Source: Bacteroidales bacterium
GTDB taxonomy: Bacteria > Bacteroidota > Bacteroidia > Bacteroidales > WCHB1-69
Reading direction: 5' to 3'
Assembly: GCA_024686335.1 (NCBI GenBank)
Contig: JAILCI010000024.1
Coordinates: 50,024 to 114,023, forward strand
Length of the DNA: 64,000 bases
A program made the position numbers and the translations under genes. The notes under the pieces were generated by a model. The model saw nothing but the letters and a program-made list of their open reading frames with translations, did not search any database and was not told the origin of the DNA. Below are positions 1,543-50,118 of the stretch, piece after piece (the first letter of the stretch is position 1; the number at the start of each line of letters is the position of its first letter).

Positions 1543-4491
1543 CAGATTTTGGCTTTTCATTTTGTACTAATAACAATCACTTCTACAGCGGCTGTTGTGA
1601 TAGCAGTCTGTTTAATAATTGCTGGTATTTTTCTTGCTCGTTATATTGTCATGAGAATTGGTGAAGATACATTCAATCAGTTGGTTGCGGGTCTTAAGAG
1701 GAAAATAACGCCAGCCTTTAATGAGATTCAAACTATAATTCAACCTACTCGTCTGGTTTCCGATGAGGAAGTTGCTGCAATGAGTAAAAAGTATAATCCA
1801 TTGCTAGTTGAAATATATAAACTTGAAAAGCATAGATACTTTGACGAGCGTGTTTTTCAGGAGTCTGGTATTAATTCATTTAAATCTTTGCTGAAAAATA
1901 TTAAGCAAAGAAAGGAGGAAAATAATCAAATATACAATGCTATTGCTGATTTGAAACCTGTTGCCGCCTCAATGGCAATGAAATCTCAATCTTTACTTCA
2001 TCCCTCACACTATTTTACTTACTCTGAATATGAAGAATTCCTTGTTTCATATCAGTCGATAAAACCCAAAATCGACAAGGTCTTCCCTAAATATTCCAAG
2101 TTTGTTAGCGATGATGAAACTAAGAAATTACCAGCGCTAGTGAGAGATTTAAAGGGTGAGCGTTCTAAGCATAACAATCAGTTCATACAACAAGAGATAG
2201 AAGATAACAAATCTTATTTTGACACTGTGCTCGGTTCATATCCTTTGGATGCGCAACAACGTGATTCTATCGTAAAATTGGAAGATAACTGTCTGGTTAT
2301 AGCCAGTGCTGGAAGTGGTAAGACGTCCACTATTGTAGGAAAGGCGAAATATTTGGTGGAAAAGCAAAATATTGATCCAGAAAAAATAATACTTCTAACA
2401 TATACTAAGAAAGCTGCCTTCGAATTGTCAGAGCGCATCAAGATTCCGAATCTCAGCACAGGAACTTTCCATAGTTTGGCATATCATATTATTGCAGAAG
2501 TGACAGGACAAGCGCCGTCTATCTGTAGTAATGATGTTCCGCTTAACGTATTTAGAAAGTTGATACAGGGAAATCATGATTTTCTTCATGCAGTAAATGA
2601 TTACTTGATTAATAAGCAGTCACTTATGAAGCTGGAGCATGACTATACGGATTCTTTTTCGTATTTTGAGGATAGGAAGAAGTATGGTATCCAAGCTATT
2701 TTCTCGGATATGGATGATAAAATCATCTTTACTCGGAGTGAAGAGGAAAAGCGAATTTGCTCAATCCTTACCCAACTGGGTATTCAGTTTCGCTATGAAG
2801 CTAGCTATATAATTGACACACGCACTCCGGAACGTCGCCAATATAAACCGGATTTTACCATATACTTTAAAGATAAGCGAGGTCAGCAACAGTGTATTTA
2901 TTTGGAACATTTTGCCATTGACCGTAACGGTCAGACCCCAAGATGGTTTGGAGAAGGAACCAATGGTGGTTGGTCTGCCGCAAATCAGAGATATTTAGAA
3001 GGTATCCGATGGAAACGTAGAACGCATCGTGAGTATGGTACTGTCTTGATAGAAACAACCAGTGCAAATTTTCATGATGGTTCGATAGAGCAAGTGCTCG
3101 TTAATCAATTAATTGTGAATGGAGTCCCGATCAATCATCGTTCTGATAAAGAATTGTATGATTTAATGATTCAGCGCAATCGTCAGTTGGAAAAGACGGT
3201 CTTTACACTGCTTCTTTCATTTATCACATTGATGAAAGCTAATGAGAAGACTATTGATGGATTGTTGGATACTTTAAATAATGCTGAGGCGCTTTCGTCG
3301 GAAAATGACGCGCGAAATCGTTTTATACTTAAAGAGGTTGTTAAACCATTTTTCGAAGCTTACCAATCCGAACTGGATAGTAAGTATGAGATGGATTTTA
3401 CGGATGCTATTATTCAAGCTACGACTCTTTGCAGAGAAGGATTGTGGAAACAGTATGATTATATTTTGGTCGATGAGTTTCAAGACATTTCAGTTGACAG
3501 ATATAAGTTTTTGCAGGCACTTCGATCTGAGAAACCAAAGACGAAACTCTATTGTGTAGGTGATGATTGGCAATCTATCTTTAGATTTGCCGGCAGTGAC
3601 ATGTCACTTTTCTATGATTTTGAAAATTATTTTGGATACACGGAATTATGTAAGATAGAAACAACGTATCGATTCCATCAGCCATTGATAGACAAGTCGT
3701 CTGCTTTTATCATGAAAAACAGTGCTCAAAAGAGAAAGACCATCAAAACTCCTGCAGGGGATAGAAAAAAAACCTATTTGAATTTTGTAAAATGTGAATC
3801 TGATGACGGTGGCGTTTTAAATAGGGTAGAAGAGATTGTTAATGACATACCCATAAATGAATCCATTCTCATCATAGGCAGGTACAATCACGATGCTAAG
3901 TCTGTTGGTTTTAATGGAAAAATAGATATGAAAGACAATCGGATAAAGGTTACAATATCTGGTCGTGAAATTTTCTTCCTGTCAGTCCATTCAGCTAAAG
4001 GATTGGAGGCGGATCACGTTATTTTAGTTAATTGTAATCAAGGAGCATATGGTTTTCCTTCGCTTATTGAGGATGATCCGATTCTGGACTTCGTATTAAG
4101 TAAATCAGATCAGTATCCCTTTGCAGAAGAACGTCGATTGTTTTACGTTGCTATGACCAGGGCTAAGAAAAAGATGTATGTTTTGTATGATCGGAGACGA
4201 CCTTCACCTTTTATAAGTGAGTTCATGCTTAAGTTGGAGATAGGGTCATATTTATGTCCCAAATGTCTTGAGGGTAAGATGATTCCCATTAAAGAAGGAA
4301 CAACCTCAAATGGATCTTCATATCGGTCATTCATTTGTAGTAACAACGAGGCCGGTTGCGATTTCTTTGAAACGCGTTACGGTAATTTAACACCTCCGGG
4401 AACGCGTATTACAGAAGATATGACAGCTCAAGATGTGGAGCGTTTGCGTGAAATCCGGAGAAAGGCTAGGAGAGTGGCCGGAGTCCGTTAG
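1519..4491 (+). CDS. UvrD/Rep-type SF1 helicase with embedded PD-(D/E)xK-like nuclease module and C-terminal C4 zinc ribbon
   Basis: 990-codon frame. Helicase motifs: Walker A IASAGSGKTSTIVGKAKY (~nt 2300), ILVDEFQDIS, CVGDDWQSIFRFAGS, SVHSAKGLEADHVILV and RRLFYVAMTRAKKKMYVLY. The insert EEEKRICSILTQLGIQFRYE...YKPDFTIYF...IYLEHFAID (~nt 2737-2940) has a restriction-endonuclease-like D...E-x-(K/H) pattern. The C-terminus CPKC...CSNNEAGC (~nt 4257-4375) looks like a topoisomerase-type zinc ribbon. The track start (TTG 1519) lies upstream of the predicted -7 boxes. The real start is therefore probably TTG 1549 (keeps the hydrophobic segment ITITSTAAVVIAVCLIIAGIFLA) or ATG 1651. Confidence 0.85.
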   Translation: MYFCHIILQILAFHFVLITITSTAAVVIAVCLIIAGIFLARYIVMRIGEDTFNQLVAGLKRKITPAFNEIQTIIQPTRLVSDEEVAAMSKKYNPLLVEIYKLEKHRYFDERVFQESGINSFKSLLKNIKQRKEENNQIYNAIADLKPVAASMAMKSQSLLHPSHYFTYSEYEEFLVSYQSIKPKIDKVFPKYSKFVSDDETKKLPALVRDLKGERSKHNNQFIQQEIEDNKSYFDTVLGSYPLDAQQRDSIVKLEDNCLVIASAGSGKTSTIVGKAKYLVEKQNIDPEKIILLTYTKKAAFELSERIKIPNLSTGTFHSLAYHIIAEVTGQAPSICSNDVPLNVFRKLIQGNHDFLHAVNDYLINKQSLMKLEHDYTDSFSYFEDRKKYGIQAIFSDMDDKIIFTRSEEEKRICSILTQLGIQFRYEASYIIDTRTPERRQYKPDFTIYFKDKRGQQQCIYLEHFAIDRNGQTPRWFGEGTNGGWSAANQRYLEGIRWKRRTHREYGTVLIETTSANFHDGSIEQVLVNQLIVNGVPINHRSDKELYDLMIQRNRQLEKTVFTLLLSFITLMKANEKTIDGLLDTLNNAEALSSENDARNRFILKEVVKPFFEAYQSELDSKYEMDFTDAIIQATTLCREGLWKQYDYILVDEFQDISVDRYKFLQALRSEKPKTKLYCVGDDWQSIFRFAGSDMSLFYDFENYFGYTELCKIETTYRFHQPLIDKSSAFIMKNSAQKRKTIKTPAGDRKKTYLNFVKCESDDGGVLNRVEEIVNDIPINESILIIGRYNHDAKSVGFNGKIDMKDNRIKVTISGREIFFLSVHSAKGLEADHVILVNCNQGAYGFPSLIEDDPILDFVLSKSDQYPFAEERRLFYVAMTRAKKKMYVLYDRRRPSPFISEFMLKLEIGSYLCPKCLEGKMIPIKEGTTSNGSSYRSFICSNNEAGCDFFETRYGNLTPPGTRITEDMTAQDVERLREIRRKARRVAGVR

Positions 4492-4503
4492 AGAGAGTTT
4501 GTA

Positions 4504-5196
4504 TTAGATTACTCCTCCAAACAAACGTTGAATGTTCTCGTAGGCAGGTATATAGGCAGCAATCTTGCTGTACTGTTTGGTGTGTAATATAGGTATTACT
4601 TTTATCTTTCTGTTTGAACTTAGTTCATAACAATTACCGCATATATCCAGAAAGCCCTTGGGCTTTGAATGCTCATAATATGGCGGATTGCTTTTTAAGC
4701 CATTTTCTTTGGGTTTAGCTTTTTCGACAAAGTCTGTTCCCGATTGATAAAAGTTGAAATAATGCAGCCAATAATTAACCTGTTCGGACATGGGAAAAAC
4801 ATATTCAATAGTATCATGTTGAGCTATGATCTCATTTAACCGTTCAACACCTTTTTGGGCTATTTCTTCAGGAATCAAAATGGTTTTGTTCTTAGGCCTG
4901 TTTTCCCCACCATCTGTCAAGTCCAGATTACATAGATTGGTGACATATATTTCTTCCGCCTTGTATTTATGGTTCGTCACGTCCAACACCTGCTTGAAAC
5001 TATTAGCAGCTAGATTGTATTTACTTTTTTCGGGTCCGCTCTTAGGCTCGTCTCGGAAATAATAATCTGCGTATAATGAATGTTTGGGGAAATCCTTAGA
5101 CGATTGCAGTCCAGGATCGTGTCCAATCAGCAATACTTTTGGTTTTACCTTTAATTCCTTAAGTGGGTTCCAGTCTTGACACTCTCTGTTTTTCAT
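4504..5196 (-). CDS. Divergent uracil-DNA-glycosylase-superfamily (UDG-fold) protein
   Basis: 230 aa. KVLLIGHDPG resembles UDG motif A (G-x-x-P-G/Y). It is followed by YVTNLCN and a C-terminal IPILHT that could be the motif-B histidine. No closer family was recognised. A minus-strand TAtcTTTG box lies at 5265-5272. The stop is only 12 bp from the convergent helicase stop. Confidence 0.5.
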   Translation of the reverse strand: MKNRECQDWNPLKELKVKPKVLLIGHDPGLQSSKDFPKHSLYADYYFRDEPKSGPEKSKYNLAANSFKQVLDVTNHKYKAEEIYVTNLCNLDLTDGGENRPKNKTILIPEEIAQKGVERLNEIIAQHDTIEYVFPMSEQVNYWLHYFNFYQSGTDFVEKAKPKENGLKSNPPYYEHSKPKGFLDICGNCYELSSNRKIKVIPILHTKQYSKIAAYIPAYENIQRLFGGVI

Positions 5197-5507
5197 AATT
5201 GTTTGATGTGAAATTGTTTTTGACGAAAGTTGATTGAAAACAGAATTAATTCGTTTTACAATTGCAAAGATATATTTTTTTAGAATATTTTAAATGTTGT
5301 TCCTGCCATGCATTGTTGTATGTTTAAAAAATAACTATGTAATGACCTGCTGCCACGGAGAGCAAGCCGGATCCGACTTTGCGAAAAGTGATGGGGTTTG
5401 CGGAAAGAAACGGCTTTGACGGCTTTGTGGTTCCCACAGCGCCAATCCCGTGAAATATTTCAATATGTAACAGCTTCAGACCATCTGGATTCTATTCGAA
5501 AAAAAAT

Positions 5508-5556
5508 ACCGTGGCAATCTTGGTATTTCAAAAATATTTTGTAATTTTGCCACGGT
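5508..5556. promoter_or_regulatory. Operator-like inverted repeat overlapping the XRE-gene promoter
   Basis: ACCGTGGCAA (5508-5517) and TTGCCACGGT (5547-5556) form perfect 10-bp arms around a 29-bp AT-rich spacer. The right arm overlaps the TAatTTTG -7 box at 5542-5549, about 40 nt upstream of the XRE ATG. An extra half-site TGCCACGG lies at 5351-5358. Confidence 0.6.
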
Positions 5557-5595
5557 TTTGTTTTGGGCTTTTGAGTCTGGAAAACCGATTGAAAC

Positions 5596-5940
5596 ATGAA
5601 AAACAGTATGAAAGAAATTATCGGAAGAAATCTTAGAATCCTTAGGGAAGAGAGTGGTTTTACCCAAGAAAATGTGGCTGAATATCTTAATATCGGCCGT
5701 TCGGCATATGCTAATTATGAAGCGGGAGAGCGGGAGATGCCGTTGGAAATCTTGGAGAAAGCTGCAGTCCTCTTCGGTTGTGAGCTGAGCCTGCTCTTTG
5801 AGGAGGATCAGGAGGCGGTGAAGACTGAACTCTCCTGCGCATTCCGCGCCAACAACTTGTCTGCCAGTGATATGCAGGAGGTCTCCGCATTCAAGAAAAT
5901 TGTCCTTAACTACCTTAAAATGGAAAGACTACTATCGTAA
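5596..5940 (+). CDS. XRE-family helix-turn-helix transcriptional regulator
   Basis: 114 aa. IGRNLRILREESGFTQENVAEYLNIGRSAYANYEAGEREMPLEILEKAAVLFGC is a canonical Cro/C1-type HTH. Confidence 0.9.
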   Translation: MKNSMKEIIGRNLRILREESGFTQENVAEYLNIGRSAYANYEAGEREMPLEILEKAAVLFGCELSLLFEEDQEAVKTELSCAFRANNLSASDMQEVSAFKKIVLNYLKMERLLS

Positions 5941-8605: not shown

Positions 8606-9334
8606 ATGAAATATGCATTAATAACAGGCGGTTCGCGAGGCATCGGCCGTGCCGTGGCTCTGCGTTTGTCGCAGCAGGGACTTCCCGTGATTGTTAACTA
8701 TGTCAGCAACGATGCTGCCGCTGAGGAGACCAAACAGATGGTCGAGGCGCAGGGAGGCAAATGCGAGTTGCTGAAATTCGACATCGCTGACAAGCAGGCT
8801 GTGGAAGCTGCCTTACAGCAATGGGAGGCTGCCCACCCGGAGGATTTTATCTCCGTGCTGGTCAACAACGCTGGCACCCGCCGCGACAATCTGATGATCA
8901 TGATGAGTGACGAGGATTGGCACAGCGTCATCGACACACCACTGAATGGCTTTTTCTATATCACCCGTCGTCTGGTGAAGACGATGCTCACGCACCGTGA
9001 GGGCCGCATCATCAACATGGCGTCGCTCTCCGGCTTGAAGGGCGTTCCCGGTCAGACCAACTACAGCGCTGCCAAGGCTGCCATTATTGGCGCCACGAAG
9101 GCATTAGCCCAGGAGGTTGCCAAGCGCAAGATCACTGTCAATGCTGTTGCTCCTGGCTTCATCGCCACTGACATGACGGCCGAGTTGGATGCCGAGGCTC
9201 TCAGCAAGATGATCCCCGCTGCCCGCTTCGGCACCCCCGAAGAGGTCGCCGCCGTCGTTGCTTTTCTGGCCTCTCCCGAGGCTTCATATGTGACGGGCCA
9301 GGTGATTCAGGTGAACGGAGGGTTGTACAGTTGA
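8606..9334 (+). CDS. fabG: 3-oxoacyl-[ACP] reductase (SDR family)
   Basis: 242 aa. It has ITGGSRGIGRAVA (TGxxxGxG), NNAG, the S-Y-K triad context NYSAAKAA and the C-terminal GQVIQVNGGLY. A TAtcTTTG box lies at 8546-8553. Confidence 0.9.
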   Translation: MKYALITGGSRGIGRAVALRLSQQGLPVIVNYVSNDAAAEETKQMVEAQGGKCELLKFDIADKQAVEAALQQWEAAHPEDFISVLVNNAGTRRDNLMIMMSDEDWHSVIDTPLNGFFYITRRLVKTMLTHREGRIINMASLSGLKGVPGQTNYSAAKAAIIGATKALAQEVAKRKITVNAVAPGFIATDMTAELDAEALSKMIPAARFGTPEEVAAVVAFLASPEASYVTGQVIQVNGGLYS

Positions 9335-18182: not shown

Positions 18183-19526
18183 TTAGATAATACCTTGAGC
18201 TAACATAGCTTTTGCAACGCGCATGAAACCGGCGATGTTGGCACCCTTAACATAGTTGATGGTACCATCAGCCTGACGACCGTGCTCAACGCACATGTCA
18301 TAGATGTCGTTCATGATCTTGTGCAGTTTGGCGTCAACCTCAGGAGCAGTCCAGTTGATGTGGCCAGCGTTTTGGCAGATCTCAAGACCGGAGGTAGCTA
18401 CACCACCAGCGTTGACAGCCTTACCAGGTCCGAAGGGGATCTTAGCTGCTTGGAAAGCAGCGATAGCGGCAGGTTGGCAACCCATGTTGGAAACCTCAGC
18501 AACGTATTGAACGCCGTTAGCGAGGAGTTCCTTAGCATCTTCTTCAGCGAGCTCGTTCTGGAAAGCGCAAGGACAAGCGATGTCACATTTTACGCTCCAA
18601 GCTTTCTTGCCAGCTGTGAATTTAGCTTTGCCAGGGAATTTGTCGGCCATGTCTTGAACTTTGTTGCGGTTAGAAGCACGCATGTCAAGCATGTAGTCGA
18701 TCATCTCTTTGTCGATGCCTTCAGGAAGTTCGCAGACGCCATCAGGACCGGAGACAGCAACAACCTTAGCACCGAGTTCGGTAGCCTTGGTAGCAGCACC
18801 CCAAGCAACGTTACCGAAGCCAGAGAGAGCGATTCTCTTGCCTTCCATCTTGTCGCCTCTTTCTTTTACCATGCGCTCAACATAGTAGATAGCGCCGAAA
18901 CCGGTAGCTTCCGGACGGATGAGGGAACCACCCCAACCATAGGATTTGCCAGTGAGGGCACCGGTAGAATGCTCGCGAGCGAGTTTCTTGTAAGCACCAT
19001 AGAGGTAGCCGATCTCACGACCGCCAACACCTACGTCGCCTGCAGGGCTGTCCTGATCCGGACCGATGTTGCGCCACAACTCATACATGAAGGCTTGGCA
19101 GAAACGCATAATTTCAGCGTCGCTCTTGCCAACGGGATCGAAATCGGAACCACCCTTGCCACCGCCGAGAGGCAGATTGGTCAGAGAGTTTTTGAAGATC
19201 TGCTCGAAACCTAAGAACTTCAACATGGAGACGTTAACTTTCGGGTGGAAACGGAGACCGCCTTTGTATGCGCCGAGAGCAGCGTTATATTGTACGCGGT
19301 AGCCTAAGTTTGTGCAAACTTCGCCCTTGTCGTTTACCCACGTTACGCGGAAAGTGAAGATACGATCGGGTTCTACGATACGCTCAACGATCTTAGCAGC
19401 CTCGAACTCGGGGTGTTTGTTGTATTCTTCTTCGATCGTTTCCAGGACTTCGCGAACAGCCTGCAAATACTCATTTTCACCGGGATGTTTGGCCTCCAGG
19501 TTAGCCATGATTTCATTTACTTTCAT
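18183..19526 (-). CDS. gdhA: NADP-specific glutamate dehydrogenase
   Basis: 447 aa. Motifs: PLGGGKGGSDFDP, GFGNVAWGAA, and the typical N-terminus EYLQAVREVLETIE. A minus-strand TAccTTTG box lies at 19588-19595. Confidence 0.95.
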   Translation of the reverse strand: MKVNEIMANLEAKHPGENEYLQAVREVLETIEEEYNKHPEFEAAKIVERIVEPDRIFTFRVTWVNDKGEVCTNLGYRVQYNAALGAYKGGLRFHPKVNVSMLKFLGFEQIFKNSLTNLPLGGGKGGSDFDPVGKSDAEIMRFCQAFMYELWRNIGPDQDSPAGDVGVGGREIGYLYGAYKKLAREHSTGALTGKSYGWGGSLIRPEATGFGAIYYVERMVKERGDKMEGKRIALSGFGNVAWGAATKATELGAKVVAVSGPDGVCELPEGIDKEMIDYMLDMRASNRNKVQDMADKFPGKAKFTAGKKAWSVKCDIACPCAFQNELAEEDAKELLANGVQYVAEVSNMGCQPAAIAAFQAAKIPFGPGKAVNAGGVATSGLEICQNAGHINWTAPEVDAKLHKIMNDIYDMCVEHGRQADGTINYVKGANIAGFMRVAKAMLAQGII

Positions 19527-19700
19527 ATTATAGAAATTTAAAATTTGGGTTTTTTGTAAAACTTTTTTTGCTTATTGAAAGCGGGTGCAAAGGTATAAAA
19601 TTTATTGATACAAGCAACGAGAATAATTTTTATTTGCTATGGATATTTAGACATAAATTTAAAATAAGGGAGTTATATACATGATGGCATAACAAAAACG

Positions 19701-19998
19701 AGTACAAAGTCAAAAAATGCATTTTAACCCCAATGATTTACCGAAGTACTTGCCCATAGAGCACGCGGGCGGGCAGGCCGACATGCGGTGCGGACGCGGT
19801 GTGAATGGCCGGCCTCCAACAGCGGCGTGCAAAGGCGCTTGCGTTTACAAAAATGCATGCCTTCCGTGTGTTTTCTCGTTTGCTACATGCTGCATTTTTG
19901 TTCCCGTTTGCCGCCGCTGTCAGAGGGCGGACAGAGCGGGCGGGATTCATGTCGGCTTGATCTTTTGGCAACTTTTCTATCAAGAGAAAAGTTGAAGA
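19701..19998 (+). repeat. 298-bp GC-rich structured repeat, copy 1
   Basis: About 90 percent identical by eye to 32112-32410, in the same orientation. Nested helices are GCCGACATG 19777-19785 / CATGTCGGC 19948-19956, ACAGCGGCG 19819-19827 / CGCCGCTGT 19912-19920 and ACAAAAATGCA 19847-19857 / TGCATTTTTGT 19891-19901. The terminal hairpin is AACTTTTCT 19970-19978 / AGAAAAGTT 19985-19993. Confidence 0.9.
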
Positions 19999-20132
19999 AT
20001 TTTATTTATGGGAGTTACGTGCCATAAAGCCCTCAAAAAACCTCTATTAGCAACATACTTGGACATACAAGGTGCCATAAGGTATATAGTCCCTTAAAAT
20101 AAATACAAAACGACGGTTTGTCAATTGAGTTG

Positions 20133-20285: not shown

Positions 20286-20810
20286 CTATTTTTTGTGATC
20301 TTCTCTTAATTTCTCAAGTGCAGCTAGCGTGGTCTTGCTTACAACTTTATTGTCTCTAATGTTAAGTGGATAGTAATTCGTGGAAAGTTCTTTAATCTCT
20401 TTTTTTTCTGCTGTCTCTCTTTGTTTTGAACAATGCCATTCCCATTCGCAGTTTTCATCTATAAAATCATTGATCATTTGTTCAGATTTGGTAACGTCAA
20501 TATCTAAGAGTGCACTCAAGGTATGACGTAGTGTGGAAACTGTCTCACAGAAGGCCCCATTCTTTTTCGTATGATGGATAGAAGGCTCGATGTGCCATTT
20601 GGCACGATCATTTATGTCTTTTGTTGATATGCCAAAATACAATGCAGCATAGCCATTTTCATCGACTTTGATCTTGTTTAAATCAATCTCTGGAAGCGCT
20701 TTCAATAAATTTTTCACACATCTTTTGTTAAACCACCAGGTGTAGTATCCTGGTCCTTTTTTCACATACTTGTCAAGATTGCCTCTTAATTCTTTTACGG
20801 GTTGTCTCAT
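20286..20810 (-). CDS. GIY-YIG-superfamily nuclease-like protein
   Basis: 174 aa. GYYTWWF (GIY-like), ALYFGIS (YIG-like), RAKWH, LRHTLSALL and C-terminal EKKEIKELSTNYYPLNI follow the GIY-YIG order of conserved elements. It has its own minus-strand TAaaTTTG box at 20846-20853. Confidence 0.6.
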   Translation of the reverse strand: MRQPVKELRGNLDKYVKKGPGYYTWWFNKRCVKNLLKALPEIDLNKIKVDENGYAALYFGISTKDINDRAKWHIEPSIHHTKKNGAFCETVSTLRHTLSALLDIDVTKSEQMINDFIDENCEWEWHCSKQRETAEKKEIKELSTNYYPLNIRDNKVVSKTTLAALEKLREDHKK

Positions 20811-30441: not shown

Positions 30442-31743
30442 ATGAAAGAGGCGTTTTTGCATTATGTATGGCAGTATCAATTGTTTGATACTGAAGAATT
30501 ATATACCACAGCAGGGGAGAGACTGACGATCATCTCGCCAGGTCGGTTGAACAGAGATGCAGGTCCAGACTTCAAGGGTGCAGTGGTTCGCATCGGCAAC
30601 CTCACTTGGGCTGGGGATGTGGAGATCCATATCAGGAGTTCCGATTGGTATCGCCACAAACATCAGCAGGATGAGAAGTACATGATGGTCGCTCTGCACG
30701 TTGTTTATGAACATGACCGAGAGGTGGAACGTATGCCCGGAGAACTGTTCCCTACGTTGTCGCTGGAAGGTCGAATCTTTAATGGCTTATACGATCAGTA
30801 TCTTCTTCTGACGGGAGGTCTTGAACTTCAGCCTTGTTCTTCATTTCTTGATAACATATCTCCGATGGTCATCCGTGGACAACTCGACACTATGTTGCTG
30901 GAGCGTATGTTGCGAAAACAGAATGCGATACGGGAGACGGTGACACATTGCCATGGCGACTGGCAGGAAGCCCTATATCGACATCTGGCCATCGGATTCG
31001 GGCTCAAGACGAATGCAGACGCTTTTGAACTTACGGCGAAGAGTCTGCCATATAAGGTTGTCAAACGGCATGCAGAGTCCGCCTTGCAAGTCCAGTCGCT
31101 GGTCTTCGGCCAGGCTGGCATGCTAGGTGTTGCTGAGGGAGATGACTACTATCTTCGACTCAAGTCCGAGTACGATTACCTTCGTTATAAATACCAGTTG
31201 ACGCCTATTGAGATGCATCATTGGAACCTCCTGCGCTTGCGTCCGCAAAATTTTCCTTGTGTGCGTCTTTCGCAGTTTGCCGAGGTGCTGCATTCAATAC
31301 CGGACCTCTGGGGCGAGTTGACACGCAATAGTTCCATGGACTATTGGTGGAAACGCTTCTCGGTGTCGGCTGATGACTACTGGAGTTTTCATTATCATTT
31401 CAATAAGAAGACGGAACCTCATGCCACGGCGGTAGGGGAGATGACCATTTCATTGCTCTTCATAAATGTCATGGTGCCGATTCTCTTTGCTTATCACAAG
31501 TTTAGAGGTGAGGATGAGCTGTTGGAGGAGACGTTGAACATGTTGGAGGCGATTCCTTTTGAGCAAAACCGCATCACGCGGGGACTTGCCGATTTCCCGC
31601 ATCAGCACGCGGCGGATTCTCAAGCGCTATTAGAACTCTATAATAATTATTGTAAACCGCGTCGATGTCTGGAGTGTGCTATAGGCGACTGCATAGTGAA
31701 ATCATCTATTGTTAAATCAAATAATCACGAAAATGGAAAATGA
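30442..31743 (+). CDS. DUF2851-family protein
   Basis: 433 aa. The N-terminus MKEAFLHYVWQYQLF...GPDFKGAVVRIGNLTWAGDVEIHIRSSDWYRHKH is the hallmark of DUF2851. A TAtaTTTG box lies at 30414-30421. Confidence 0.8.
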   Translation: MKEAFLHYVWQYQLFDTEELYTTAGERLTIISPGRLNRDAGPDFKGAVVRIGNLTWAGDVEIHIRSSDWYRHKHQQDEKYMMVALHVVYEHDREVERMPGELFPTLSLEGRIFNGLYDQYLLLTGGLELQPCSSFLDNISPMVIRGQLDTMLLERMLRKQNAIRETVTHCHGDWQEALYRHLAIGFGLKTNADAFELTAKSLPYKVVKRHAESALQVQSLVFGQAGMLGVAEGDDYYLRLKSEYDYLRYKYQLTPIEMHHWNLLRLRPQNFPCVRLSQFAEVLHSIPDLWGELTRNSSMDYWWKRFSVSADDYWSFHYHFNKKTEPHATAVGEMTISLLFINVMVPILFAYHKFRGEDELLEETLNMLEAIPFEQNRITRGLADFPHQHAADSQALLELYNNYCKPRRCLECAIGDCIVKSSIVKSNNHENGK

Positions 31744-32104
31744 AAATCAAAAACAATTAAAAGGAAAGCAGGGAGAGGACATGGCCTTGGATTATCTCTT
31801 GGAACAAGGCTATCGTCTTCTGGAAAGAAACTATCACTGGGGACATCTGGAGATCGATTTAATCATGGTTGATGGCGACTTCATTGTCTTTGTAGAGGTG
31901 AAGACGCGCAAGAACAGCAACTTTGGTGAACCGGAGTCATTTGTCAATCTGCAGAAGCAGCGCAACATCATTAGGGCAGCGAATGGATATGTGAACAAGA
32001 TGGGGATAGGCAAGGAGGTTCGTTTCGATGTGGTCTCCGTCATCGTCGACGAAGGTCCGAGCAGCATCAAGCATTTGAAAGATTGTTTCAAGCCGAGATG
32101 GTAA
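31733..32104 (+). CDS. yraN: YraN-family (UPF0102) endonuclease-like protein
   Basis: GKQGEDMALDYLLEQGYRLLERNYHWGHLEIDLIMVDGDFIVFVEVKTRK. The likely start is ATG 31733, which overlaps the DUF2851 gene end by 11 nt, rather than 31709. Confidence 0.85.
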   Translation: MENENQKQLKGKQGEDMALDYLLEQGYRLLERNYHWGHLEIDLIMVDGDFIVFVEVKTRKNSNFGEPESFVNLQKQRNIIRAANGYVNKMGIGKEVRFDVVSVIVDEGPSSIKHLKDCFKPRW

Positions 32105-32111
32105 CCTTGTC

Positions 32112-32410
32112 AGTACAAGGTCGTAAATGCATTTTAACCGCAACATGATTTACCGAGGCCCCTGTCCATAGAGCACGCGGGCGGGGAGGCCGACATGCGG
32201 TGTGGACGCGGTGTGAATGGCCGGCCTCCAACAGCGGCGTGCAAAGGCGCTTGCGTTTACAAAAATGCAAGCTTTCCGTGTAATTTTCCATTTGCTACAT
32301 GCTGCATTTTTGTTCCCGTTTGCCGCCGATGTCAGAGGGCGGACAGAGCGGGCGGGATTCATGTCGGCTTGATCTTTTGGCAACTTTTCCATCAAGGGAA
32401 AAGTTGAAGA
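32112..32410 (+). repeat. 298-bp GC-rich structured repeat, copy 2
   Basis: It is co-linear with 19701-19998. The terminal hairpin here is AACTTTTCC 32382-32390 / GGAAAAGTT 32397-32405, a T-A to C-G compensatory change relative to copy 1. Confidence 0.9.
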
Positions 32411-32530
32411 GTGCTATTATATTTGAGGACGTATCTGGCTGTATACGGTTTCTTAATCATGTCATATATATTTAATGAACGAGATGCAATTACAAATAAC
32501 CACCATAGTGCTATCATGTATTTACTTCTC

Positions 32531-32636
32531 AAAAAAAAAAGAGCAACGCGTTGCTGCTCTTCACATATGAGTGCAATGAACAGTCCACTGCTAAATAATA
32601 GAGGCTTTCTGTATTCCTAACCATTGTCACATATGC
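32531..32636 (-). ncRNA. Candidate ~105-nt small RNA (promoter + strong terminator, no ORF)
   Basis: A minus-strand TAttTTTG -7 box lies at plus coordinates 32642-32649. About 95 nt downstream is the hairpin AGAGCAGCAACGCGTTGCTCT (plus 32541-32560, palindromic core GCAACGCGTTGC), followed by T10 (plus A10 32531-32540). Only an 11-codon ORF lies inside. Confidence 0.4.
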
Positions 32637-32720
32637 GGATGCAAAAATATAAAAAATAGTAATGCAAAACACCGATTTAGAACAAGGTAGAAATAAAAAT
32701 AGTGGTTAACGATGGCAACA

Positions 32721-32750
32721 AAAAACGCGGAGTAACAACTCCGCGTTTTT
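32721..32750. terminator. Terminator hairpin immediately 3' of rnpB
   Basis: A5-CGCGGAG-taacaa-CTCCGCG-T5, a symmetric 7-bp perfect stem. Confidence 0.7.
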
Positions 32751-32751
32751 G

Positions 32752-33092
32752 TAAAGGAACCTATAAGCCGGGTTCTGTACTATGTTGTCATTTATCTAGG
32801 GCGCAGGTCACCCTGCGTCTCAATCAACCTACCCTCCGAGTCGGGCGAGCAACCCTCGAGCCTCGGTTTATTTGGTCTTTCAACCCATAAGGTTTACCCT
32901 CGACGTCATCACTGATCATCGGCGTGAGCTCTTACCTCGCGATTTCACCCTTACCGTCTTGCGGCGGCGGTATCTTTTCTGTGGCACTGTCTGTCATCCG
33001 TCGGATGCCTTCCCGTTAGGAAGTATGGTGCTCTGTGTTGCCCGGACTTTCCTCTCCCATCTGGTGATGGCAGCGACAACGAGGTTCCTTTT
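32752..33092 (-). ncRNA. rnpB: RNase P RNA (bacterial type A)
   Basis: The minus strand contains the universally conserved blocks GAGGAAAGTCCGGGC (plus 33041-33057), GGTAAGGGTGAAA (plus ~32944-32956), GGTAAGAGC and ACAGAACCCGGCTTAT (plus 32763-32778). P1 pairing is GGAACCT (5') / AGGTTCC (3'). Ends are approximate to within 5 nt. Confidence 0.93.
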
Positions 33093-49377: not shown

Positions 49378-50118
49378 ATGATCAAGATGCTAGAGAAACA
49401 AAAAATCATCCAAATGTACATTGCAGGCGGAAAGAGCCTGCGGGAGATTTCCAGGGAACTGGGCGCGAGCCGCCAGGCGGTCACGAAAATCGTCAAGGAA
49501 TATGAAAGCGCCCTTCTGTCGGACAATCCGGATGAGGCGGTGGACGCTGTGCTGACCACACGTCCGCAGTACCACAGCGGTCCGAGGCGCTGCCCGGTGG
49601 TGACACAGGAAGTGCGCAGGATCGTCTCGGAGTGCCTGAAAGAGAACGAGCGCCGCCGATTCGGCGGTGAGAAACATTACGGCTACAAAAATCACGCAAA
49701 AGTGGACAAGGGGAGCAAGTTCATCAAGAAAGGAGTGACCATAAATGCCTCCGTTCATGACTCCAAGCCGGTGAAAGAGCTTGTGGATGAGAATGACAGG
49801 GGAGAGGATTTGCTCGCGGACAGTGCCTACATCGGCAAAGGGGTGAAGAGGGTGATGCGGAAGTTCGGGATGAAGGACAAAGTGATCAAGCGGAGCACCA
49901 GAGGCAAGAAGATCAGCAAATGGCAGGAGACCATCAACAGGAAGAACTCGAAGCTGCGCATGAGGGTGGAACATGTGTTCGGGTTCATGGAAGAGAGCTT
50001 TCACGGAATGTACAGCCGTGTGGTCGGCTTTGCGAGGAACGCGGCTTTCAACACCCTGACAAACCTGGTCTACAATCTGTGCCGCTACGAGCAAGTACTA
50101 CGACTTGGAATGAATTAA
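49378..50118 (+). mobile_element. Chimeric transposase remnant: IS21 IstA-like N-terminal HTH fused in frame to an IS5-family DDE C-terminal part
   Basis: Residues 1-95 (MIKMLEKQKIIQMYIAGGKSLREISRELGASRQAVTKIV...VRRIVSECLKENERRR) look like the IstA N-terminus. From about residue 98 (nt ~49670), HYGYKNHAKVD...VTINASVHDS...LLADSAYIGK...NSKLRMRVEHVFGFM...NLVYNLCRY is the D-D-E half of an IS5-type transposase lacking its own N-terminus. The block is markedly more GC-rich than its flanks. Confidence 0.7.

Follow-up and report, generated by a model that had tools for sequence, protein, structure and literature searches.

The DNA analysed here is a 64,000-nt stretch (hereafter the window, numbered from its first nucleotide) of the genome of a Bacteroidales bacterium of the WCHB1-69 lineage, corresponding to positions 50,024 to 114,023 of contig JAILCI010000024.1 in assembly GCA_024686335.1. 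It contains a GC-rich, hairpin-forming sequence in two same-orientation copies that are ~92% identical over 298-300 nt, one on the upstream side of gdhA (copy 1, shared part 19701-19998) and the other behind a YraN-like gene (copy 2, shared part 32112-32410). [quoted passage not shown] Its terminal inverted repeats are flanked by target-site duplications, it is present in many copies in several species, orthologous sites occupied by the element and empty sites can be compared, and autonomous elements have the same ends.

Structure of the two window copies

The flanks of 19701-19998 and 32112-32410 are unrelated and the similarity ends abruptly on both sides; a 39-nt probe from the centre of the repeat matched only these two sites in the window, with 0 matches expected by chance. 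The pair had been recorded, in the same orientation, in a first-pass annotation made from the sequence alone, with boundaries that proved too tight, the 298-bp unit being only the part common to both window copies. Copy 1 is an intact element of 426 bp (19668-20093) with inverted repeats of 23-24 bp, GGGAGTTATATACATGATGGCAT and GGTGCCATAAGGTATATAGTCCC. An identical 9-mer, TTAAAATAA, abuts both ends, at 19659-19667 on the left and 20094-20102 on the right, the two copies of a target-site duplication. The annotation's statement that the element lacks terminal inverted repeats was therefore wrong, and arose because the two window copies have only their interior in common.

The left terminal inverted repeat of copy 1 (19668-19691, plus strand; GGGAGTTATATACATGATGGCATA) matches the family consensus GGTAATTATATACATGATGGCACA at 21 of 24 positions, counted by eye. 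It is inverted relative to the right terminal repeat at 20071-20093 (plus strand), and the same repeat bounds the transposase-bearing elements at loci L074, L080 and L065 described below (loci outside the window carry L numbers). Between the ends, three segments follow one another on the plus strand. The left subterminal module (19692-19752) is variable in the family and includes the palindrome AAAATGCATTTT at 19714-19725; the version found in copy 1 recurs in copy 2 and in L020. The conserved GC-rich core (19753-19998) consists of a small 5' stem, a long imperfect hairpin (19777-19956) whose variable apical loop (19858-19890) keeps a pyrimidine-rich TTTCC(T/C)TTTTG-like motif, and a terminal hairpin (19969-19994). 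The right subterminal module (19999-20070) is a variant common to L021, L023 and L025, and contains a partial end-like sequence, GGGAGTTACGTGCCATAA. Of the two subterminal hairpins that had been assigned to the ends of the repeat, the terminal hairpin at 19969-19994 is present, whereas the left one, AAAATGCATTTT, belongs to the variable module and is absent from most family members.

In copy 2 (32112-32530) the left end is gone and a degenerate right repeat is kept. Homology begins 7 nt past the UPF0102/YraN-like gene (31709-32104), counted from its stop codon, with a remnant of the left module (32112-32164, plus strand), the left inverted repeat and ~33 nt being gone; a scan for the family repeat pattern found no left repeat there. 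The core that follows (32165-32410, plus strand) is 93.75% identical to that of copy 1; among its changes are the single compensated one, in the terminal hairpin, and one uncompensated stem change. The right module (32411-32506, plus strand) has diverged and bears weak similarity to other right modules, and the degenerate right inverted repeat (32507-32530, plus strand; AGTGCTATCATGTATTTACTTCTC) matches the consensus right repeat at 18 of 24 positions. It adjoins an A10 run (32531-32540), which on the minus strand forms the T-tract of a terminator-like hairpin. Copy 1 may still be mobilisable; copy 2 is a fixed relic.

A family of elements in rumen and gut Bacteroidales

One representative genome per species was scanned with a 21-mer from the core, yielding 32 true copies in four metagenome-assembled genomes (MAGs) of rumen and gut Bacteroidales, namely RGIG9735 (18 copies), RGIG9758 (10), RGIG7025 (2) and RGIG7251 (2), together with 2 matches due to chance. 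A search with nhmmer, which recovered every copy in the DNA searched, added one more on the metagenome contig L094; the core was detected by BLAST or nhmmer at the 32 MAG loci and in L094. The earlier description of the repeat as dispersed, miniature, non-coding, structured and of mobile-element origin is correct. Many of the copies in the MAGs are located at contig ends, as expected of a repeat that breaks short-read assemblies, and short-read contigs of the window organism likewise break within both window copies; look-ups of window genes by exact protein sequence gave only such short contigs of the same strain.

We give next to no credence to the view that the repeat is a simple segmental duplication or a small protein-coding gene. 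The window by itself holds two copies only, but there are 33 further copies in five other genomes with unrelated flanks, a distribution that excludes a plain duplication. Open reading frames (ORFs) of 70-92 aa do extend over the core on both strands, as long frames are expected to in GC-rich sequence; the open frame and its strand vary from copy to copy, and indels are not multiples of three. We thus rejected the coding hypothesis, and the earlier finding of no credible ORF holds for the family, which has no conserved one.

Alignment of the family with its flanks placed the ~245-nt GC-rich core (equivalent to window 19753-19998) inside variable left and right modules, with at least three unrelated left modules. 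The consensus of the inverted repeats, compiled from extracted ends, is GGTAATTATATACATGATGGCACA ... TGTGCCATCATGTATATAATTACC, ~24 bp. Copy 1 and more than 10 complete family members have inverted repeats of 23-25 bp at both ends. Complete elements are 410-680 bp long, and the elements taken together 352-682 bp. Perfect flanking direct repeats composed of A and T only, 7-10 bp and mostly 8 bp long, were found at no fewer than 12 of ~24 distinct repeat-bounded elements, examples being TTTTTTAA, TATTTTTA, AAAAAAAT, AAAAATTT and TTAATATT. Searches of plasmid and phage collections and of IMG/VR with the element or its core returned no match.

All 20 copies analysed for their surroundings are intergenic, and their orientation relative to the neighbouring genes shows no bias. 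On this ground we rejected a cis-regulatory RNA acting in a fixed orientation.

The family also varies in structure. The left modules of types II and III (L003 3037-3260; L007 4612-4767) are GC-rich as well and have inverted repeats of their own, for instance TCGCGGCGG...CGCGCCGCGA; judged from these sequences, the MITE family appears to be put together from several interchangeable hairpin modules. Two short derivatives, L054 611-965 and L050 1789-2140, have lost the inner stretch of the long hairpin and kept both inverted repeats. L054 is flanked by a perfect 8-bp target duplication, and its deletion junction has 4 nt of microhomology, consistent with excision of the palindrome by replication slippage.

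Autonomous elements and cassettes with the same ends

The first-pass annotation had proposed a search for a full-length IS sharing the ends of the repeat. Such elements exist and, among the loci examined, belong to the IS1595 family rather than encoding tnpA, tnpB or iscB. Viral and metagenome contigs were scanned with the inverted-repeat sequence. At L065 (3666-6268) the same ends enclose a 326-aa ORF that starts 68 nt inside the left repeat and matches the Pfam families DDE_Tnp_IS1595 (PF12762, 3.6e-46) and Zn_ribbon_IS1595 (PF12760, 6.6e-9). The same two families are assigned to proteins P0004 and P0010 in precomputed annotation, and all three transposases match the NCBIfam model NF033547 ('IS1595 family transposase') with 199-214 bits (cutoff 75; 1e-58 to 2e-63). 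The genomic context of two close homologues of the L065 transposase (78% and 76% identical) led to L074 and L080. The L074 element (2382-5609) is bounded by the repeats GGGAATTATATACATAATGGCACA and TGTGCCATCAAGTATATAATTTCC and by the 8-bp duplication TTAATATT, and the L080 element (2375-4693) by the 8-bp duplication AAAAAAAT; in L074, L080 and L065 alike the transposase gene is positioned directly inside the left repeat. L074 comes from sequencing run SRR15145247, and the same sample also yielded contigs that match the window organism identically. In the plasmid collection, the nearest annotated transposase, from Bacteroides faecis, is 43% identical. No similarity was detected between the MITE and the IS1595 transposase.

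The same inverted repeats also surround transposase-less cassettes with unrelated cargo. These comprise a 355-bp cassette with a small ORF and the duplication TTTTTTAA (L035 81-435, the same as L037 9310-9664), one of 494 bp whose small ORF is lipoprotein-like (L036 9205-9698), a 1-kb cassette encoding a 278-aa protein with a phosphoribosyltransferase domain (L056 2411-3430), and a further cassette at L072 (1762-2255). The 278-aa protein of L056 matches Pfam Pribosyltran (2e-6) and has a weak likeness to the ShosT defence toxin (PADLOC, 7e-5).

With regard to passengers, the three transposase-bearing elements (L074, L065 and L080) are 2.3-3.2 kb long and include 1-2 passenger ORFs. Those of L074 and L065 had no Pfam or PADLOC match, and a motif, MNKKQTIRLNE(N/S)QLK, is common to passenger proteins of L065 and L056.

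These partners bear directly on the derivation that had been suggested at first, a palindrome-associated transposable element (PATE) of IS200/IS605 origin, perhaps with an omega-RNA or guide-RNA-like scaffold, which we now regard as highly improbable. The repeat is indeed small, non-coding, hairpin-rich and dispersed, like PATEs. Elements of the IS200/IS605 group and their PATEs have no inverted repeats, do not duplicate their target and depend on a Y1 HUH transposase for movement, whereas the present element has terminal inverted repeats and 8-bp duplications, and among the loci examined the elements sharing its ends encode an IS1595 DDE transposase and not TnpA(Y1), TnpB or IscB. Its targets are A/T runs and not positions 3' of a fixed tetra- or pentanucleotide, most family members lack the supposed left subterminal hairpin, and Rfam gave no match to HEARO or any other family. 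Because of the inverted repeats, the 8-9-bp duplications and the IS1595 DDE partners with matching ends, we assign the repeat to an IS1595-family MITE and not to an IS200/IS605 derivative.

Occupied and empty insertion sites

The gene order DUF2851 - YraN - rnpB - dnaN around copy 2 is kept in two related species (L093 and L094), whose DUF2851 proteins share 72% and 78% identity with that of the window. The distance between YraN and dnaN is 386-392 bp in these relatives versus 995 bp in the window. In the relatives, the alignment passes within ~10 nt from the YraN stop to an A-run and the hairpin of the rnpB terminator. At this place the window has ~607 extra bp (32107-32700), made up of the truncated MITE and a stretch of ~170 bp with a candidate small RNA; the whole block is missing from the orthologous spacers of L093 and L094. 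The rnpB gene itself, at 32748-33092 on the minus strand, is the sole RNA gene found by Rfam in the window. A second site is informative in the opposite direction: between Maf and DUF2851, L094 has a complete copy including both inverted repeats, L093 has none, and the window has no copy either, its spacer being otherwise unrelated sequence.

Several insertions are situated in an A/T run right beside an intrinsic-terminator hairpin (L007 ~4767-4800, L037 ~9270-9310 and window 32531-32562). From sequence, this pattern suggests that terminator T-tracts may be a preferred and probably harmless target; as an 8-bp duplication of the T-run leaves a T-tract on the hairpin, such insertions should do little harm.

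Some features next to the two copies deserve mention in their own right. The gene gdhA (18183-19526, minus strand) has a -7 box, TACCTTTG (19588-19595, minus strand), and copy 1 is located ~73 bp upstream of this box. On the other side of copy 1, a low-GC gene cluster begins at 20286 and includes a GIY-YIG_2 protein; this cluster is not next to gdhA in relatives with a 96% identical gdhA. Beyond copy 2, the ~170-bp segment that is missing from the YraN-rnpB spacer of the two related species contains a candidate gene for a ~105-nt small RNA (32531-32650, minus strand) with a Bacteroidetes-type -7 box, TATTTTTG (plus-strand positions 32642-32649), and a terminator-like hairpin (32538-32562) followed by a T10 run; the candidate has no Rfam match. 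The edges of the ~607-bp block (32096-32121 and 32682-32710) have similar short sequences, GATGGTAACC and GTGGTTAACG, with ACCTTGT/ACAAGGT, which may be due to chance or may be traces of the origin of the block.

Fold and conservation of the core

The GC-rich structured element first noticed in the window corresponds to the internal cargo of the MITE, a ~245-nt module dominated by the ~180-nt imperfect hairpin. Its GC content is ~62%, as estimated from the sequence, with 300-nt windows across the element reaching ~50%, compared with ~35% in the surrounding intergenic DNA. The nested helices that had been described are all present. The outer helix pairs 19774-19785 with 19948-19959 (CAGGCCGACATG/CATGTCGGCTTG), a second is formed inside 19806-19827 and 19912-19933 (ACAGCGGCG/CGCCGCTGT), and the innermost pairs 19847-19857 with 19891-19901 (ACAAAAATGCA/TGCATTTTTGT) and encloses the 33-nt loop; the arms of the terminal hairpin at 19969-19994 are CAACTTTTCT/AGAAAAGTTG. 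The double change reported in this last hairpin (T>C/A>G in copy 2, preserving pairing) is real and occurs in only 1 of 26 copies, and the uncompensated C>A change in a stem is real as well.

The predicted minimum free energy (MFE) is -109.9 kcal/mol on the plus strand versus -101.4 on the minus strand, and the fold is modestly better than those of shuffled sequences (z = -2.3 and -2.9, respectively). Across 26 copies, the consensus fold comprises 72 pairs; 99% of the cells are paired, and 51 pairs are invariant. Compensatory changes affect 3 of the 72 pairs, 2 of the 3 in single sequences, and include the change already noted in copy 2 and a newly recognised change in L094. Of -81 kcal/mol, covariation contributes -1.09. 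Covariation neither supports nor refutes an RNA structure here because the alignment varies too little. G-U wobbles are found in all or most copies at four pairs (49/212, 50/211, 64/201 and 103/172). Since these wobbles pair on the plus strand only and the plus-strand MFE is lower, a plus-strand RNA is mildly favoured, if RNA is involved.

Conservation is distributed very unevenly along the element. In the 20-copy alignment, mean pairwise identity reaches 95-97% in both arms and in the 3' hairpin, compared with 61% for the apical loop between the arms. The 12 copies that have the common right module show identities of 93-97% for the arms, 72% for the apex, 76% for that module and 80% for the right inverted repeat. 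Invariant columns make up 33 of 40 unpaired non-apex positions, 92 of 106 paired positions and 6 of 38 apex positions. Unpaired positions are thus as conserved as paired ones, and the signal is one of sequence, not structure, conservation. A variable apex between conserved arms is poorly explained by recent spread or by gene conversion over long tracts, and the simpler explanation for the pattern seen in the alignment would be that purifying selection acts on the arms of the core at the level of primary sequence. No consistent fold was found for the apical loop: apex-only folds were no better than those of shuffled sequence, their z-scores scattering around 0, so a conserved extra helix at the apex was rejected.

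Known RNA families and transcription signals were sought in the core. Rfam 15, run at the gathering threshold on the whole window and on L003, L009 and L074, and at E<=10 on both window copies, returned only rnpB and noise. No conserved Bacteroidetes-type TAnnTTTG box and no terminator were found inside the element, the only such boxes nearby being that of gdhA, that of the candidate small RNA and one non-conserved site in copy 2; a sigma-70-type scan gave low-scoring consensus matches, from a model that does not apply to Bacteroidetes promoters.

A functional structured RNA, for example a trans-acting small RNA family or some other ribonucleoprotein RNA, whose conserved scaffold would present the variable, pyrimidine-rich apical loop and whose vehicle would be the MITE, is a doubtful reading that concerns the role of the core only and is compatible with the MITE assignment. 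A GC-rich stretch in AT-rich intergenic DNA is a classic signature of structured RNA, and the core, at ~62% GC in ~35% GC surroundings, fits it. Also in favour are the 72 nested pairs that are 99% paired in 26 copies and the four wobble pairs together with the lower plus-strand MFE. The arms, moreover, change at a rate at least 5 times lower than that of the remainder of the same copies, with a varying apex between them, which speaks against recent spread or gene conversion as the cause. Coxiella has known small RNAs of MITE origin (PMC10969869). On the other hand, Rfam offers no family even at E<=10, compensatory changes are limited to 3 of 72 pairs with 2 singletons, no conserved TAnnTTTG promoter and no terminator was found inside the element, orientation relative to neighbours is random, and the unpaired positions are conserved like the paired ones around an apex without a consistent fold.

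That the core acts as DNA, as a cis site (a cruciform or hairpin, or a protein-binding site) that aids transposition or retention or binds a host protein, seems slightly less likely still. Conservation that is equal at paired and unpaired positions and extends to G-rich internal loops and two GCGGGCGGG motifs would suit such a site. The hairpin also scores on both strands (nhmmer reverse-strand matches) because it is a DNA palindrome, and under master-copy dynamics the cis requirements of active copies stay conserved across lineages. Yet the core is absent from the autonomous elements and the other cassettes with the same ends, and the derivatives L054 and L050 keep both inverted repeats after losing the inner hairpin, L054 within a perfect 8-bp duplication. 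The core is not needed for transposition. We know of no binding protein or motif for the core.

Ranked by probability, then, the candidate roles of the core are a structured RNA made by read-through, followed by a cis-acting DNA or protein-binding module, followed by a constrained but selfish passenger. We advance only very tentatively a functional RNA or protein-binding nucleic-acid module, not described before, in which a rigid, sequence-constrained ~180-nt hairpin scaffold presents a fast-evolving, pyrimidine-rich loop of 33-38 nt and is spread by the MITE.

Discussion

The assignment to an IS1595-family MITE, a non-autonomous IS derivative that has no transposase gene of its own, implies a mechanism of movement. 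An IS1595-family DDE transposase supplied in trans would recognise the ~24-bp repeats (consensus GGTAATTATATACATGATGGCACA), and the element would insert into intergenic A/T runs, often terminator T-tracts, duplicating 8 bp and sometimes 7-10 bp. Around the core, left and right modules of different kinds have come together. That mobilisation occurs in trans is what we infer.

Several observations weigh against this assignment or complicate it. About half of the complete elements have no perfect flanking repeat, as would be expected of older insertions, and L065 has no clean target duplication. Neither the 64-kb window nor the 34 MAG stretches searched contained an IS1595 transposase gene. An empty site was sought for copy 1, but none is definable, because synteny with relatives is lost upstream of gdhA, where those with a 96% identical gdhA have other neighbours. 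At copy 2, which has no left inverted repeat, the ~607-bp extra block exceeds the MITE remnant, and the history of this copy must therefore be more complex than a single insertion. As for the role of the core, the MFE z-scores are weak, covariation is almost nil, and internal promoters and terminators are lacking.

The IS1595 family is said, by Siguier, Gagnevin and Chandler in 2009 and in ISfinder, to make an 8-bp target duplication. Its spectrum, as defined by the same authors and in the ISsaga paper (PMC3129680), covers transporter ISs, which hold passenger genes, as well as mobile insertion cassettes (MICs) and MITEs. The elements described here resemble that spectrum: the partners encode a zinc-ribbon and DDE_Tnp_IS1595 transposase, have passenger ORFs and generate 8-bp duplications, and cassettes without a transposase have the same repeats at their ends, as does the MITE. 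They differ in that the nearest annotated transposase of the plasmid collection is only 43% identical to the partner found here. In the literature searched, which was not covered exhaustively, we found no description of this inverted repeat, of the GC-rich hairpin cargo or of the lineage, nor, within the same incomplete search, of an IS1595-derived MITE in Bacteroidales.

Prokaryotic MITEs are typically AT-rich, with 7-9-bp direct repeats and 23-29-bp inverted repeats; their transcripts are predicted to form stable stem-loops and some yield small RNAs (PMC10969869). The present family has in common with Coxiella QMITE1/2, the Neisseria Correia elements and the pneumococcal RUP, BOX and SPRITE elements that it is short and non-coding, has terminal inverted repeats and targets AT-rich intergenic DNA (PMC10969869). 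Unlike typical prokaryotic MITEs, its core contains ~62% GC and is conserved more strictly than its own inverted repeats. The BrickBuilt MITE of Porphyromonas gingivalis is similar in belonging to the order Bacteroidales and in having a composite internal region; it contains a minisatellite (PMC4596501), whereas in the family here a single long GC-rich hairpin is surrounded by unique modules that are interchangeable. PATEs of the IS200/IS605 group and omega-RNA/HEARO scaffolds are comparable in being small, dispersed and hairpin-rich, and are set apart by the inverted repeats, duplications, IS1595 DDE partner and missing Rfam match of the present element. Overall, the element is an ordinary kind of transposon, and what is unusual is a hairpin cargo conserved more strictly than the ends of the transposon that carries it.

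What seemed to be a mystery structured element thus becomes a mobile element with defined ends, a target preference and a transposase family. As these repeats fragment the assemblies of rumen Bacteroidales MAGs, with many copies at contig ends, their definition helps annotation. One set of IS1595-type ends serves transposase genes, small protein cassettes (one of them defence-toxin-like) and a non-coding hairpin module. If the conservation of the arms reflects function, the family would be an example of a MITE that spreads a useful RNA or DNA module. In the further case, to which we assign a low probability, that the module is a regulatory or guide-like RNA with its specificity in the variable loop, rumen Bacteroidales would possess a family of such RNAs disseminated by transposons.

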